A stretch of DNA of 9,357 nucleotides, from IMG/VR virus record IMGVR_UViG_2537562195_000004, one strand, 5' to 3'. The position numbers were made by a program, and so were the translations under genes. Each line of letters starts with the position of its first letter. Positions within the stretch are counted from its first letter, which is position 1. The notes under the pieces are model-generated. The model had not been told where the DNA came from. It was given only the letters and a program-made list of their open reading frames with translations, and made no database searches. Of this stretch, positions 1,739 through 6,909 are shown piece by piece. The stretch is from a virus. Taxonomy: Duplodnaviria > Heunggongvirae > Uroviricota > Caudoviricetes.

Positions 1739-1945
1739 ATGGAAGCAATCAAAAAAGTCATCTTTCGCCAGGAAGTAAAAAAACTTATCCACATTAAGGC
1801 AGACAGCACGCTGCAAAGCATGATCAACGCCGGAGAATTCCCGCAGGGTTTTCGTGTCGGTTTGCGCCGTCGCGGATGGTATGAGGAAGACGTAATCGCA
1901 TGGATGAAAGAACGAGAACAAGAAGCGCGCGGAACGACCGCTTAA
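1739..1945 (+). CDS. alpA: AlpA-family phage regulatory protein (Vis/excisionase-like helix-turn-helix)
   Basis: 68 aa; pattern ..L..MI.AGEFP.G...G.R.RGW.E.DV..WM is typical of AlpA/Vis proteins next to P4-type integrases. GAGG RBS at 1726-1729. Confidence 0.85.
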   Translation: MEAIKKVIFRQEVKKLIHIKADSTLQSMINAGEFPQGFRVGLRRRGWYEEDVIAWMKEREQEARGTTA

Positions 1946-2066
1946 CATATATAGGGCAAATGATGAACATAAAAAAAGCGGCCCCGAAATGGAGCCACCT
2001 TTCTGAACAATTAACCCGCTGCGCCGTATGTGTCAACAATCATAAGCTTGGGCATGATAACCGCGA

Positions 2067-2270
2067 TCAGGCTGGTGGGCAATTATCTTTCTTGTTGGGG
2101 CCGTATTGTGCTGCCATTTTCATCCGTTCAGAACGTGAATATTTTTTTAGAAACTCATCAAGGACAAAAGCGCATGGTGCGAATCTTTCTGATTCATGCT
2201 CGAGCGCCATATTTTCGTGCTCTCTGTTCGTTTTTTGCGATGGTGTATCGGTTGATTCTTTATTGGTCAT
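2067..2270 (-). CDS. Hypothetical small protein, 'MTN' paralogue C (second gene of RHH cassette 1)
   Basis: 67 aa. Paralogous to 2721-2948: both start MTN + S/T/Q-rich N-terminus and share C-terminal motif F.L(D/E)(E/D)F(L/V).KY(S/P)R. Start preceded by conserved ACAGG. Family unknown. Confidence 0.45.
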   Translation of the reverse strand: MTNKESTDTPSQKTNREHENMALEHESERFAPCAFVLDEFLKKYSRSERMKMAAQYGPNKKDNCPPA

Positions 2271-2278
2271 TGTGTGTA

Positions 2279-2322
2279 CCTGTAAAGCAATGCGCCGTAG
2301 TACCTCACGCCACGGCGCTGAT
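2279..2322. repeat. 44-bp conserved palindromic intergenic element, copy 1
   Basis: cctgtaaagcaatGCGCCGTagtacctcacgccACGGCGCtgat; 43/44 identical to 2957-3000. 7-bp inverted repeat GCGCCGT (2292-2298) / ACGGCGC (2312-2318) with 13-nt loop. The single difference (2309) is in the loop. Confidence 0.8.
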
Positions 2323-2327
2323 GTTTT

Positions 2328-2501
2328 TTATCCTTTGGGTTCAATACCGCGTTGCTGTAATTCTTTTCGGAGTACTCGCTTGATCCAGGTGGCTAAAGAA
2401 GTGTCACCGTCTGCTTTCGCTGCCTCTTCAAGTTGTGCTCTGAATTCTTCTGGTAGCCGCATTTGGTATGGAGGCGATCGCTTTTCCAATGGTGTTGACA
2501 T
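2328..2501 (-). CDS. Ribbon-helix-helix (Arc/Mnt/MetJ-type) DNA-binding protein; not in the supplied ORF track
   Basis: Hand translation of the minus strand: MSTPLEKRSPPYQMRLPEEFRAQLEEAAKADGDTSLATWIKRVLRKELQQRGIEPKG (57 aa, stop at 2328-2330). Fits the Arc/Mnt beta-strand/helix/helix pattern (P.x.hRhP.E.....A...G.S.N..I...L). AGGG RBS; start abuts palindromic operators. Confidence 0.7.
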   Translation of the reverse strand: MSTPLEKRSPPYQMRLPEEFRAQLEEAAKADGDTSLATWIKRVLRKELQQRGIEPKG

Positions 2502-2543
2502 GGTAATTACCCTTAATTACTATAGTTACATGGTAATTACCAT
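2495..2543 (+). promoter_or_regulatory. Divergent promoter/operator region I: sigma70-like promoter overlaid by two GGTAATTACC palindromes
   Basis: -35 TTGACA (2495-2500), 17-bp spacer, -10 TACTAT (2518-2523). Perfect palindromes GGTAATTACC at 2502-2511 and 2532-2541 (second extends to ATGGTAATTACCAT, 2530-2543); centres 30 bp apart. A possible minus-strand -10 TATAGT for the RHH gene lies in the same region. Confidence 0.5.
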
Positions 2544-2568
2544 TGTACTTACCGTTATACAAAAAACA

Positions 2569-2680
2569 ACGCCCCGCAGTGGTGGCTCACATATGGGGCG
2601 TCTAACCAAACCATTAATTGAGGTAACGATTATGGCTATAAAAGAGCATAGCTTACTCTTTATACACACACAAACGCCCC
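2569..2680 (+). repeat. Leader module copy 1 (orphan): hairpin, RBS, ATG and ~16 codons homologous to the Icd-like gene leader
   Basis: Hairpin cgcccc (2570-2575) / ggggcg (2595-2600), then tctaaccaa, GAGG, ATG at 2632 encoding MAIKEHSLLFIHTQTP (compare MVAVNHIPHLVHTQTA at 3378). Similarity then ends. On the minus strand the hairpin is followed by TTGTTTTTT, so it is terminator-like for minus-strand transcription. Confidence 0.6.
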
Positions 2681-2681
2681 G

Positions 2682-2701
2682 GAAACGGAATAATCCGTTT
2701 C
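2682..2701 (-). other. Perfect 8-bp hairpin just 3' of the upstream MTN gene (putative RNA 3'-end structure)
   Basis: GAAACGGA-ataa-TCCGTTTC, 20 nt downstream of the stop of the 2721-2948 minus-strand ORF. Confidence 0.4.
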
Positions 2702-2720
2702 ATGGTTCCGTCTTGTGCAC

Positions 2721-2948
2721 TCATCCTGGCGGTCGGTTTTTGCCGGATTTAAGCCGCCGTGGGTATTTATCGACAAAATCTTCAAGGGCAAATTTTTCTG
2801 GTGGCACTAAGCGCGGCGCTGGTGGTGGTATTTTTGTTCTGGTTAGTTCTTCCTCAAGTCTGGCGCAGGCTTCTGACTGCCTTTGCCGGATGATTTCATC
2901 ATCTTGCGTTTGCGTGTCTTGTATTGGTGATAGTGTGTTGTTGGTCAT
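2721..2948 (-). CDS. Hypothetical small protein, 'MTN' paralogue B (second gene of RHH cassette 2)
   Basis: 75 aa, paralogous to 2067-2270. Preceded by conserved ACAGGG and the 44-bp element. Family unknown. Confidence 0.45.
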   Translation of the reverse strand: MTNNTLSPIQDTQTQDDEIIRQRQSEACARLEEELTRTKIPPPAPRLVPPEKFALEDFVDKYPRRLKSGKNRPPG

Positions 2949-2956
2949 GATACTGC

Positions 2957-3000
2957 CCTGTAAAGCAATGCGCCGTAGTACCTCACACCACGGCGCTGAT
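2957..3000. repeat. 44-bp conserved palindromic intergenic element, copy 2
   Basis: 43/44 identical to 2279-2322. Same position in a 57-bp spacer between an RHH gene stop and an MTN gene start. Confidence 0.8.
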
Positions 3001-3005
3001 AGTGA

Positions 3006-3185
3006 TTATTCTGATTCTTTGGCCTTGCGACGCTGGCGGCGTTTGATTTCGCCGCGCATGGCTGCGTTTATAAACTGCCCCGTGCTTTCACCTTCTTCTT
3101 TCACGTTCTCCATGCCTTCAATAATTTCATGGGCAATACGTGCAGTTACAGATTGTGATTTTGCATTCTTTGGCCCCGTTGCCAT
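3006..3185 (-). CDS. Small RHH-like DNA-binding protein (putative repressor of the Icd-like/rep operon promoter)
   Basis: Preferred start is the ATG at 3185 (MATGPKNAKSQSVTARIAHEIIEGMENVKEEGESTGQFINAAMRGEIKRRQRRKAKESE), preceded by GAGGGG at 6-nt spacing; the track start at 3224 lacks an RBS and would place operator copy O1 in coding sequence. Pattern VTARIAHEII....GES.GQFINAAM resembles Arc/Mnt. Fold assignment is by eye. Confidence 0.5.
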   Translation of the reverse strand: MATGPKNAKSQSVTARIAHEIIEGMENVKEEGESTGQFINAAMRGEIKRRQRRKAKESE

Positions 3186-3206
3186 GTTTAACCCCTCATG
3201 TTTTTG

Positions 3207-3287
3207 GTGTAAGACAATATACACGAAAAAAAAATATTTTGAAGGGTTGACGTGTAAGACACCGTTATTTTACATTGTGTCTTACAC
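3207..3287 (+). promoter_or_regulatory. Divergent promoter/operator region II: three copies of GTGTAAGACA(C) around a + strand promoter
   Basis: GTGTAAGACA at 3207-3216, GTGTAAGACAC at 3252-3262, inverted GTGTCTTACAC at 3277-3287 (the last two form an 11-bp perfect inverted repeat with 14-bp spacer). -35 TTGACG (3247-3252), 17-18 bp spacer, -10 TTACAT/TACATT (3270-3276). Same architecture as region I with different operator sequence. Confidence 0.5.
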
Positions 3288-3318
3288 CTTGTTGATGCAA
3301 GGTACAGAAAAGACGAAA

Positions 3319-3431
3319 CCCCGCAGTGCTGGAACACATACGGGGCTTCTAACCAACAACGTAAACGAGGAGCCGTTATGGTTGCCGTAAATCATATACC
3401 ACACCTTGTACACACACAAACTGCCTTTGTG
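3319..3431 (+). repeat. Leader module copy 2 (functional copy, upstream of and overlapping the Icd-like gene start)
   Basis: Hairpin ccccg (3319-3323) / cgggg (3341-3345), tctaaccaa, GAGGAG RBS, ATG at 3378. 33/39 identical to copy 1 over the hairpin core by manual alignment. On the minus strand the hairpin is followed by a U-rich stretch. Confidence 0.6.
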
Positions 3432-3578
3432 TGGCGTTTTCTGGCACTGAGTGCCGGAGAATCTCAAATCATCCACGTAACCGCCTGGACGGAACGCGAA
3501 GCGCGTAGCCGTTGCCCGTCCGGTTGTGTTGCTGTATTCGCTGCCCGTATTCGTCAGGGGGAAACCTATGCACAATAA
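3378..3578 (+). CDS. Small protein, probably Icd-like (host cell division inhibitor-like, as in P1 icd / P4 kil region)
   Basis: 66 aa; pattern F.WRF.A......II.V.A.TEREAR...P.G.V.VFAARI matches my recollection of Icd-like proteins annotated in P4-like prophages. Strong RBS. Family assignment from memory, not a search. Confidence 0.5.
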   Translation: MVAVNHIPHLVHTQTAFVWRFLALSAGESQIIHVTAWTEREARSRCPSGCVAVFAARIRQGETYAQ

Positions 3579-3798
3579 AACCACACCGGACGCAGCAGAA
3601 GAAGCAATGCAAATACTGATACGTGCGCTCGTTGATGTTACCCACATGGTGGAGATTATGGAGAGAAAATCACAGTCGGAGCACGACAAAAGAAAACTTA
3701 AAACAATAAAAATAATTGCCAAAAACTCGCTGATAAAAGTTACAGACATCCTTAATGAGGACATTAAAAGAATAAGGGAGAAAATTTGTGATGCATAA
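3568..3798 (+). CDS. Hypothetical small basic helical protein X1 (in AT-rich insert)
   Basis: ATG at 3568 with AGGGGGA RBS; overlaps the Icd-like stop by 11 nt. 76 aa, K/R-rich. Local GC about 33% against about 50-60% in flanks. No family recognised. Confidence 0.5.
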   Translation: MHNKTTPDAAEEAMQILIRALVDVTHMVEIMERKSQSEHDKRKLKTIKIIAKNSLIKVTDILNEDIKRIREKICDA

Positions 3799-4023: not shown

Positions 4024-4323
4024 ATGAAACTTAAATATTCTGGCTTAACTGCCAGTGGCAACACTCACCCTAAATTTACGCGCGGTGATATTTACCGCGA
4101 CCAGTACGGCGGCACGGTAATGATTAAGGGCGTGGCGGGACGGTGCGTAACTTACCGCCGTGAAGGTTACGAATATGATTGCGTGATGCCTGTTTATCAG
4201 TTCCGGCGTGATTTTTCTCTGGTACAGACCGCGCCGCATAACGTGCCCACCAGCAACGCCAGGGCACGGGCAAACATCCAGAAGCTGAAAACCATGATTA
4301 ACGGATTCAGGGGTAAAAAATGA
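4024..4323 (+). CDS. Hypothetical protein X3
   Basis: 99 aa; GGAG upstream. Stop TGA overlaps the rep ATG (ATGA at 4320-4323). No family recognised. Confidence 0.5.
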   Translation: MKLKYSGLTASGNTHPKFTRGDIYRDQYGGTVMIKGVAGRCVTYRREGYEYDCVMPVYQFRRDFSLVQTAPHNVPTSNARARANIQKLKTMINGFRGKK

Positions 4324-5729
4324 AACTGGCACCGAACGTAAAACTATTACCGAAAGACAAATACACCGATGCGATTATTTTTGCGGGTATTGATGCTCAC
4401 TCATTCGCAGAGCATTACATCATTGCACAGGCAAAAAAAGCAGGAGATCCAGTCCCTCCCGTTTATCTGGGGCGTTATCAGTTAAGCGAACTGGATAACC
4501 TCCAGATTGTTGATGATGGGCGATACAGGGCGACGGTGATACGCGCCGGAAATATTGAAGAGCCGCAGCTGTTAACCATCGCCACGAAACTGGCGATCGC
4601 CGGAGTCCAGGAGGCGCGGCTACTTTCTGAAAATTTCGAATTGCTGGAGGAATGGAGCGACCAGCTTCCACGGCTTAGGGAGGCATGGGAACGCGGGGAA
4701 AGCCTGGTCATGAAAAAAATCCCCCAGCGAAAAACCACGCTACCGATGAGCGTTGGATCTACCGGATACGACACACAGCTTGATTACGTGGTAAAGGGGA
4801 TTATTCCGGCATCGTCGCTTTGCAGCATATACGGGGCGAGCGGTTCCTATAAATCATTCCTTGCCGGATCGTGGGCGTGTCACGTTTCCACGGGCCGCCA
4901 GTGGGGAGGCCGCAGGGTGGCGCATGGCGCTGTTCTCTATGTGGTTGGTGAAGGCGGTATCGGCGTTCCGCGTCGTGTAAAAGCCTGGGAGGTTGTACAC
5001 GGGGAGCAGGTGAAAAATCTGTATCTGGTAAACCGTCCGGTCTTTCCGGCTGTCCCGCTTGATGTTGATGAACTGGTTATCGCTGCCCGTCAGGTGGAGC
5101 GGGAAACGGGTAAACCTGTACGCATGATTATTCTGGATACGCTGGCGCGGTGCTTTGGTGGCAATGATGAAAATGATTCCCGTGATATGGGGGCGTTTAT
5201 CCGTGGTTGTGACGAACTGAAACGGCGCACAGGGGCCACGGTGCTGGTGGTTCACCATTCCGGCAAGGATGAGACGAAAGGCGCGCGCGGTTCCAGTGCA
5301 TTTCGTGCTTCGCTGGATGCTGAATACCGGATACGCAGAGAGGACGCAGGCAGCGAAGCGCTGGTTATCTCATGCACCAAAATGAAGGACGCGGAGGAAC
5401 TCAAAGAAGCCGCATATGACTTACGCGTGGTGGAGCTTTTTACCGACGCTGACGGGGAGTTAATTACGTCGCTGGTGGTGGTGGATAAGCCGCGCCCTCC
5501 CGTTGAACTGGAGCGCATCGAGGAGGCAGGCAACAAGACGGAAAACCATACCGCGCTATGGGGGTGCATACGTTCACGCACACAGCACGGCGACAAGTGC
5601 ACGATCCCGCTGTTACGTGACGATATGAAAAAGCTGGGGTATGACACAAAACACCTTAAACGATGGTTAGCCAAACTGGAAAAAGACGACGTGATCTACA
5701 TTGACGGTGATGATGTAGGACCACTGTAA
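4320..5729 (+). CDS. RepA-like replicative ATPase/helicase (RecA-fold, AAA_25-type) with a C-terminal putative origin-binding domain
   Basis: 469 aa. Walker A GASGSYKS, Walker B RMIILD, and VLVVHHSGKD motif typical of AAA_25/RepA-like phage and plasmid helicases. Lies immediately upstream of the iteron array. Confidence 0.8.
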   Translation: MKLAPNVKLLPKDKYTDAIIFAGIDAHSFAEHYIIAQAKKAGDPVPPVYLGRYQLSELDNLQIVDDGRYRATVIRAGNIEEPQLLTIATKLAIAGVQEARLLSENFELLEEWSDQLPRLREAWERGESLVMKKIPQRKTTLPMSVGSTGYDTQLDYVVKGIIPASSLCSIYGASGSYKSFLAGSWACHVSTGRQWGGRRVAHGAVLYVVGEGGIGVPRRVKAWEVVHGEQVKNLYLVNRPVFPAVPLDVDELVIAARQVERETGKPVRMIILDTLARCFGGNDENDSRDMGAFIRGCDELKRRTGATVLVVHHSGKDETKGARGSSAFRASLDAEYRIRREDAGSEALVISCTKMKDAEELKEAAYDLRVVELFTDADGELITSLVVVDKPRPPVELERIEEAGNKTENHTALWGCIRSRTQHGDKCTIPLLRDDMKKLGYDTKHLKRWLAKLEKDDVIYIDGDDVGPL

Positions 5730-6480: not shown

Positions 6481-6909
6481 GTAGGTACTCCTGGTGGGGG
6501 GGCCTGTCCACGGGGCGGAGGGGCGCGGAAAAAGGCGCATTTTTTGATTTTTATGGCACCATCACCACCACTATAAGCTATTGATATATTGAGGAATAAA
6601 AATTTTTAGTGGCGAATAAGGTTGTTTTTTGTTCATCACTGGAACGTTCCCGAAAACATTTACAAAAAAACAGGCGCAAAAAAAAGCGCCCCCGATTGCT
6701 GTTACCGGAGGCGCTTTTACACGACAAAGGAGTTTTTATCGCCAGGATGACGAGTCTTAATATTGCTTCAATAGCAAAAATGCGTCAATGGCTTTGCCTC
6801 TCTGAGAATAATCAGAAAAAACATAATCTGATTTTCAGGTAGAAAATGATTTATCTATTACTTTTATCGATCAATAATGATGCCCGTTAATCAAAACGGA
6901 GGCGGATTT

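Follow-up and report, generated by a model that had tools for sequence, protein, structure and literature searches.

A predicted cis-antisense RNA gene opposite the translation start of an Icd-like gene in a PICI-type phage satellite

The window, the whole 9,357-nt stretch of DNA analysed here (virus record IMGVR_UViG_2537562195_000004), is by its gene content an integrated PICI-type phage satellite with an integrase, an AlpA-like regulator, a RepA helicase and capsid genes. In an annotated genome comparison, an identical locus in E. coli strain 4 adjoins tRNA-Pro; its annotation begins with an integrase, a helix-turn-helix regulator and four small minus-strand genes (one of the YlcI/YnfO family) and continues with a plus-strand operon encoding an Icd-like protein, two hypothetical proteins, a DUF4222 protein, a RepA-family helicase, a PerC-family regulator and a ClpP-protease/major-capsid fusion. 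In the window the YlcI/YnfO-family gene, recognised by an NCBIfam match, occupies 3006-3224 on the minus strand and is divergent from an early promoter predicted by promoter scans on the plus strand (TTGACG-18-TACATT, 3247-3276), which is bracketed by three GTGTAAGACA operator half-sites located by a repeat search (3206-3216, 3252-3262 and 3277-3288). The Icd-like gene (3378-3578, plus strand, 66 aa) is the presumed target of the RNA proposed below and starts at AUG 3378-3380 behind the SD sequence GAGGAG (3367-3372). Its stop (3578) overlaps the start of the next gene (3568), and such overlapping starts chain on to the RepA-family helicase gene (4320-5729, plus strand). The protein matches NCBIfam family NF033153 over residues 17-60 only (64.6 bits against a cut-off of 25), the gene in the identical E. 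coli locus carries the same label, and we regard the family call as sound. A search yielded 113 homologues, and the first 16 residues differ in blocks. The product is probably toxic, and our literature search found no test of cell-division inhibition by this protein.

Three other features of the window were recorded on the way. A strong G+C-rich hairpin at 6676-6718, between the PerC-like gene and the packaging genes, is flanked by an A run and, at the opposite end, by a T run, as a terminator working in both directions would be; the hairpin gives a weak ctRNA_p42d-like Rfam match of 24 bits. At 1963-2059 on the minus strand, a terminator-like hairpin with a U run, which also gives a weak Rfam match (Atu_C8, 25 bits), lies at the end of the leftmost minus-strand gene pair and is probably the terminator of the 2501-2067 minus-strand operon. 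Finally, a stop-free frame of 496 codons (1900-3390, plus strand) runs antisense to four real minus-strand genes, is left unannotated by PGAP and looks like low-complexity junk.

Between the early promoter and the Icd-like gene, folding and covariation define a hairpin on the minus strand, SL2 (GAAGCCCCGUAUGUGUUCCAGCACUGCGGGGUUUC, 3315-3349). Its full minus-strand stem has 15 pairs, three of them G.U, built on a core CCCCG...CGGGG at 3319-3346, and it is followed by the U-rich tail GUCUUUUCU (3314-3306), the plus-strand counterpart of which is the A-rich tract AGAAAAGAC. Read on the plus strand, the same interval has three C.A mismatches, and the stem is followed by CUUCUAACC with no U tract; the arrangement of a Rho-independent terminator, a G+C-rich stem-loop and then a U-rich tract, is thus present on the minus strand only. 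A simple terminator scan missed SL2 because of a bulge in the stem. The folding energies mirror this asymmetry, as a 151-nt region containing the hairpin reaches -54.0 kcal/mol on the minus strand (z -3.5, 0 of 200 shuffles as good) and -38.5 kcal/mol on the plus strand (z -0.8, 40 of 200 shuffles as good). The original prediction had placed a conserved hairpin in front of the Icd-like gene (3319-3345) and called it terminator-like on the minus strand only, and both statements hold. Of 5426 complete E. coli genomes, 1374 contain a match to the 98 nt at 3303-3400, in up to six places each, and the genome annotations that we checked at these matches contain no RNA gene.

Comparison between islands gives the same picture. 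The minus strand is the more stable one in 19 of 21 distinct hairpin variants, with a mean of -23.5 kcal/mol vs -17.2 kcal/mol on the plus strand. In an alignment of 35 distinct sequences, 483 of 522 stem cells (92.5%) hold a standard pair on the minus strand vs 404 (77.4%) on the plus strand, and G.U cells number 88 vs 9. Three pairs of the stem have undergone double changes (AU<->CG, 19 and 15 sequences; GC<->CG, 26 and 9; CG<->GC, 2), the covariation score was reached by 0 of 500 shuffles, and partner columns slid out of register pair in only 38-54% of cells. The tail is U-rich in every variant, though the sequence further left is unrelated between islands: in 166 loci obtained via the Icd-like protein, many unrelated promoter and operator types lie to the left of the hairpin and an A-rich run always precedes the stem. 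Of the ∼1100 E. coli genomes with a match to the surrounding kilobase, most begin to match exactly at 3319. By its pattern of change SL2 is a minus-strand RNA structure under selection and, as predicted from its shape, an intrinsic terminator for leftward transcription. The inverted repeat could also act as DNA, bound by a protein as an operator, extruded as a cruciform or used by the island's primase/helicase as a single-strand initiation signal, and it does adjoin operator-rich DNA in an element encoding a RepA-family helicase. We consider this extremely improbable because it is the pairing, not the sequence, that is conserved: a change in one arm is matched by a change in the other, and only one of the strands tolerates wobble pairs, whereas protein sites conserve sequence, and the real operators are other repeats, GTGTAAGACA and GGTAATTACC.

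The interval between the terminator and the start codon also folds on the minus strand. The second stem-loop, SL1 (3351-3383), which would form the 5′ end of a leftward transcript, presents the anti-SD sequence CUCCUC in its loop (3362-3373) and holds CAU, the complement of the start codon, in its 5′ arm. Eight versions that differ in sequence (at least six clearly distinct island sequences, an orphan copy in the window and a Citrobacter copy, both described below) form this stem-loop, with z-scores of -2.0 to -4.6 on the minus strand and -0.4 to -1.4 on the plus strand. A compensatory series CGUUA/UAACG, CGUUA/UAAUG, CAUUA/UAAUG passes through a G.U intermediate. A formal covariation test of SL1 was dropped, as the classes differ in stem geometry and register and have no column pairing in common, and folding of each class against shuffles was therefore used in its place.

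Together, SL1, SL2 and the U-rich tail make up a predicted cis-antisense RNA of ∼79 nt, read from 3384 to 3306 on the minus strand and fully complementary to the SD (3367-3372) and AUG (3378-3380) of the Icd-like mRNA. The predicted RNA folds to -32.0 kcal/mol (z -4.7, 0 of 200 shuffles as good), and its complement has a z-score of -1.0. Whole predicted RNAs of five classes behave similarly, with z-scores of -4.1 to -6.2 (0 of 200 shuffles) and complements at -1.0 to -3.4, and the minus strand is the more stable one in all 56 unique full-length predictions (-30 to -42 vs -18 to -29 kcal/mol). A covariance model, R1, was built from an alignment of the unit that included the window copy 3306-3384, so that its score of 90.8 bits for this copy (minus strand) is that of a training sequence. 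Full-length matches to R1 were obtained for the two window copies and for every relative tested, always on the minus strand; plus-strand matches are partial, at 16-18 bits.

These results bear on whether the conserved element might instead serve the plus-strand leader, as a 5′ stabiliser, a processing site, a put-like antitermination site or the target of another island's C4-type RNA. The region does lie within the transcribed leader, 30-100 nt downstream of the early promoter, sister islands control the same Icd-like gene by plus-strand RNAs, and some versions are modestly stable on the plus strand, down to the z-score of -3.4 in one class. However, each minus-strand G.U becomes a C.A mismatch there, in keeping with the lower share of paired cells, the plus-strand z-scores of SL1 are near zero, R1 recognises that strand only in part, the conserved A-rich tract before the stem has no evident plus-strand role, and the c4-a1b1 target family has no match in the window. 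A leader function of this kind therefore seems very improbable to us.

Regarding the transcript itself, no report of an RNA from 3384-3306 was found in the literature and sRNA lists. E. coli O157:H7 Sakai carries the unit in prophage Sp7 (NC_002695.2, 1597426-1597506, minus strand), a 15.46-kb element that adjoins roxA, contains integrase, primase, pchE and capsid genes and, from its size and content, seems to correspond to EcCIEDL933, the prototype of the capsid-forming PICIs. The Hfq-CRAC sRNA list of the Sakai strain has no entry in Sp7, which is weak evidence against a transcript because that list holds Hfq-bound RNAs only. EcOnc33, a minus-strand RNA of ∼71 nt in the Sakai list, was ruled out as a candidate, as it is located in prophage Sp6 and not in Sp7.

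For the promoter of such an RNA, the original prediction had seen no convincing candidate by eye. A position weight matrix (PWM) scan, with frequencies after the classical promoter compilations, together with the equivalent position in relatives, now places a candidate within the Icd-like coding region: a predicted -35 TTGTGT (3414-3419, minus strand), 17 nt upstream of a predicted -10 TATGAT (3391-3396), with a predicted start near 3384. This site (3419-3391) is the top minus-strand site less than 400 nt from the terminator and ranks fourth on the whole minus strand of the window. Sites at least as good arise in 84 of 500 shuffles of the 401-nt region, so the PWM match is not significant by itself and the argument for the promoter rests on positional conservation. 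All unique sequences have TATGAT, TATGCT, TATAAT or TACTAT at the equivalent place. In classes A-C the hexamer at ATG+13 is TATGAT or TATGCT, and 34 of the 38 unique sequences of these classes have TTGTGT at a spacing of 17 nt upstream; class D shows an extended -10, TGGTATGAT and once TGGTATAAT, and the Citrobacter copy, which stands in front of an unrelated gene, has the extended -10 TGGTACTAT. T3395, the base paired with the -11A of TATGAT, is the silent third position of the His6 codon (CAT), and the bases opposite T-12, A-11 and T-7 are constant while the encoded residues change (N/Q/E, H/Y/S and I/T/S), a count that is partly circular as it was anchored on the hexamer. The conservation of these bases is confounded by coding constraint and shared ancestry. 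On balance, TTGTGT-17-TATGAT is probably a sigma-70-like promoter of the antisense RNA.

The limits of homology between islands agree with such a gene. The conserved, recombining unit has one end at the U tail and the other 3 nt beyond the -35, and the segment that is kept is therefore the predicted RNA gene. A perfect palindrome, CACACAAA-CUGCC-UUUGUGUG followed by GCGUUUU, occupies codons 12-21 of the Icd-like gene (3413-3440); read on the plus strand it resembles a terminator, and it shares positions with the minus-strand -35 of the predicted antisense promoter. A terminator scan flagged it, but the scan gave 3 sites in the region where 1.1 were expected, and taken by itself the palindrome is not significant. 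It is invariant across classes A-C and missing from class D.

As a separate observation, the perfect 8-bp palindrome CACACAAA/TTTGTGTG at 3413-3433 (codons 12-19) coincides with the right-hand recombination junction of the cassette, and class D islands have another palindrome, CCCGC-AAGG-GCGGG, at the equivalent place.

The window contains a second, orphan copy of the antisense RNA gene at 2559-2638 (minus strand), which was identified by a regular expression and by sequence and then aligned to the first copy and to the Sp7-like island. It has SL2 (2571-2606), SL1, a -10 TATGCT and a -35 TTGTGT, retains only ∼15 Icd-like codons in front, and its homology ends 3 nt past the -35. The minus-strand fold has a z-score of -3.2, and R1 scores it at 69.8 bits (E 8.6e-14). 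Eight other loci contain the same orphan unit, and the three different SL2 variants among them have all kept their pairing. It is preceded by the strongest sigma-70 match in the window (TTGACA-17-TACTAT, 2495-2523, plus strand), and its module also holds GGTAATTACC palindromes that resemble those of the O157 island. Plus-strand transcription of this module (2495-2720) would run antisense through the minus-strand orf75-ylcI operon (2721-3224), and the module might be a convergent-transcription switch between two repressor modules.

Taking these lines together, we propose, with a probability of about 0.6, that 3306-3419 on the minus strand is a small cis-antisense RNA gene with a sigma-70 promoter in Icd-like codons 5-14, ending at the terminator 3349-3315. 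An RNA that initiates within the 5′ coding region, covers the RBS and start codon and ends at the hairpin is what the original prediction had suggested, and selection on SL2, the SL1 fold, the promoter site and the minus-only matches to R1 now lend this layout comparative support, the transcript itself remaining a prediction. The simplest competing explanation dispenses with a dedicated small RNA: the hairpin would be an insulating terminator that shields the divergent repressor promoters (3295-3267 and 3243-3216, minus strand) from stray antisense transcription that leaves the early operon, and the promoter-like site would be a by-product of coding sequence. The terminator is indeed the best-supported feature of the locus, the antisense promoter match does not reach significance by itself, promoter-like sequences occur on the minus strand directly past the terminator, and the hairpin of the orphan copy, downstream of a minus-strand operon, could simply terminate that operon. 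However, insulation leaves unexplained why the 33 nt from the terminator to the start codon form a minus-strand stem-loop with an anti-SD in eight sequences, why T-12, A-11 and T-7 persist despite the residue changes, and why the conserved unit ends just past the -35. We judge it unlikely, though far from negligible.

With respect to distribution, the unit is present in Escherichia, Shigella and one Citrobacter; a plasmid collection yielded five matches and a phage collection none, and in a scan of one genome per species the Icd-like gene was found only in Shigella flexneri, E. albertii and E. ruysiae. In the Citrobacter freundii plasmid NZ_CP151862.1 (locus L169, 2440-2950) the unit (R1 70.5 bits) precedes an unrelated 121-aa hypothetical gene, next to a ccdAB pair and a small divergent gene; an Icd-like gene is therefore not a necessary partner of the cassette. 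The SL1 sequences fall into at least six classes that are shuffled against the SL2 variants. This shuffling, the up to six copies per genome and the persistence of an intact orphan copy without an intact cis target, in several islands and with three pairing SL2 variants, would also suit an RNA that is made but acts mainly in trans, on related leaders of co-resident islands or on host or helper-phage mRNAs, with the cis overlap secondary. Against this, the overlap with an RBS and start codon is perfect in every non-orphan copy and suffices for a cis role, and the orphan copy may be a recent recombination scar. We hold a mainly trans-acting RNA to be decidedly improbable.

To place the predicted cis-antisense RNA among known systems, Rfam was searched with the whole window and then with the 181-nt core 3280-3460 under lax filters, in both cases to E<=10. 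At this limit the window has no match to C4 (RF01695, gathering threshold 45 bits), c4-a1b1 (RF03163) or IsrK (RF01394, threshold 50 bits), and the original suggestion of a c4/CI-type RNA fails for this locus. The C4 model does work on sister islands, where the plus strand directly upstream of the Icd-like gene gives 69-78 bits for C4, serving as positive control, and 52-62 bits for IsrK, the biology of which has been described (PMC4825925). The P1/P7 c4 and IsrK-C4 systems share with the window unit that an RNA controls the RBS of an icd-type first early cistron. In contrast, c4/C4 RNAs are made from the same strand as their target, are cut from the leader and pair through two loops with short target boxes, whereas the window unit lies on the opposite strand, has its own predicted promoter and terminator and is fully complementary to its target. 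The arrangement that defines C4, a same-strand upstream location with a1b1/a2b2 target boxes, is absent from the unit.

Among ∼170 Icd-like genes examined, the antisense unit lies no more than 70 nt from the start in 139, all of which lack a C4 at that place, whereas 25 have a C4 directly upstream and lack an antisense unit there. C4 is found downstream of the gene in 31 of the 139, and about half of the C4-type loci keep an antisense unit and a truncated gene stub 370-440 nt further upstream; two unrelated RNA devices can therefore stack in one leader. In twelve stacked loci (L125-L127, L130, L132-L135, L137 and L139-L141) a complete unit lies at the 5′ end of the C4 leader. A MAFFT alignment of the hairpin to a GC-rich repeat that follows C4 in the C4-type loci proved spurious, as this stretch between C4 and the gene does not fold significantly on either strand (z -1.5 and -1.1) and lacks a minus-strand terminator. 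In a further observation on these loci, a PGAP pseudo-CDS for an 'ash family protein' (PF10554) at L003 3477-3815, found also in P0045, P0056 and P0112, covers both IsrK (3606-3682) and C4 (3704-3791), and some members of the ash family (PF10554) may be translations of RNA genes.

The analogy to the sar RNA of the P22 immI region, which had also been drawn in the original prediction, stands as a likeness of layout and fails as a family relationship. The sar RNA (68-69 nt) is likewise a short cis-antisense RNA over an RBS, of a gene downstream of a repressor-controlled promoter, and adds an RNA layer to small DNA-binding repressors. Sequence and structure are not similar, though, and the target is ant in a phage rather than an Icd-like gene in a satellite; the sar model (RF00262, threshold 43 bits) has no match in the window, and a variant from locus L083 matches it partially at 16.8 bits. 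A second likeness is to SymR (RF01809), the type I antitoxin RNA of symE/symR, which is ∼77 nt long, has its promoter just inside the target CDS, as predicted for the window unit, consists of two stem-loops of which the second terminates transcription, and overlaps a harmful gene at its SD and AUG. SymR is also the best Rfam match, in the 181-nt search only, over its full model length (3312-3383, minus strand, 22 bits, E 0.029). Membership was rejected, as 22 bits compares with a gathering threshold of 61 and the match is absent from the whole-window search and from two other sequence classes; the target protein and genomic context of SymR are likewise unrelated to those of the unit. The CI RNA of P4 is a small-RNA immunity factor of a phage satellite that acts on the early leader; it works by same-strand processing and by premature termination via seqA/seqC pairing, and nothing of the kind was found in the window. 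By these searches, the window unit is outside the C4, IsrK, sar and SymR families and has a layout as in P22 sar and SymR.

In the mechanism that we propose for the cis-antisense RNA, transcription would start near 3384, cross the start codon and the SD, and stop after 3349-3315 and the U tail, near 3306. The resulting RNA of ∼79 nt would pair with the leader of the early transcript that the promoter at 3247-3276 gives rise to and prevent ribosome binding at the Icd-like gene, and first contact would probably be loop to loop, as the SD also sits in a small loop in the predicted mRNA fold. Because the Icd-like gene heads the overlapping chain to the helicase gene, loss of its translation should lower the whole operon, which would come about through lost translational coupling and premature termination (polarity). 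The c4 RNA of P1 reportedly acts on icd-ant through the same two effects. By its shape alone, the palindrome with its U run at 3413-3440 suggests itself as a point at which ribosome-free transcripts might terminate. In a quiescent island the RNA would remove leaky early transcripts, and it would be outrun once the early promoter is derepressed. Since the GTGTAAGACA half-sites flank the early promoter beside the YlcI/YnfO-family gene, the RNA would form a second layer under a protein repressor.

In a bolder version, the segment from the -35 to the terminator, with the first ∼15 codons, would be a portable RNA immunity cassette that decides which satellite early operons are silenced and gives rise to RNA cross-immunity or incompatibility between satellites. 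The SL1 sequence classes would then be specificity types, and the retention of orphans such as 2559-2638 would serve to shut down, in trans, the early operon of competitors from a different class. We consider this extension quite unlikely; if it were true, the induction threshold of these islands, among them the cf-PICI prototype family, would depend on the cassette and not on AlpA alone.

Our search of the literature on Icd-like proteins, cf-PICIs, C4/IsrK, ECs1576/1577 and the RNA sequence found no report of the antisense unit, and the published account of induction of a Gram-negative island (EcCIEDL933) goes no further than AlpA. From its sequence and layout, the unit looks like an unannotated regulator of a familiar sort, comparable to sar of P22 or to SymR. 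If the proposal is correct, the replication operon would be subject, at its first gene, to a second level of control beside AlpA that has gone unrecognised, a conserved antisense RNA that about a quarter of the complete E. coli genomes would carry and that the annotations checked leave unmarked. Related islands would then silence an icd-type first cistron with unrelated RNAs, a cis-antisense RNA in some and IsrK/C4 in others, sometimes with both stacked in one leader.
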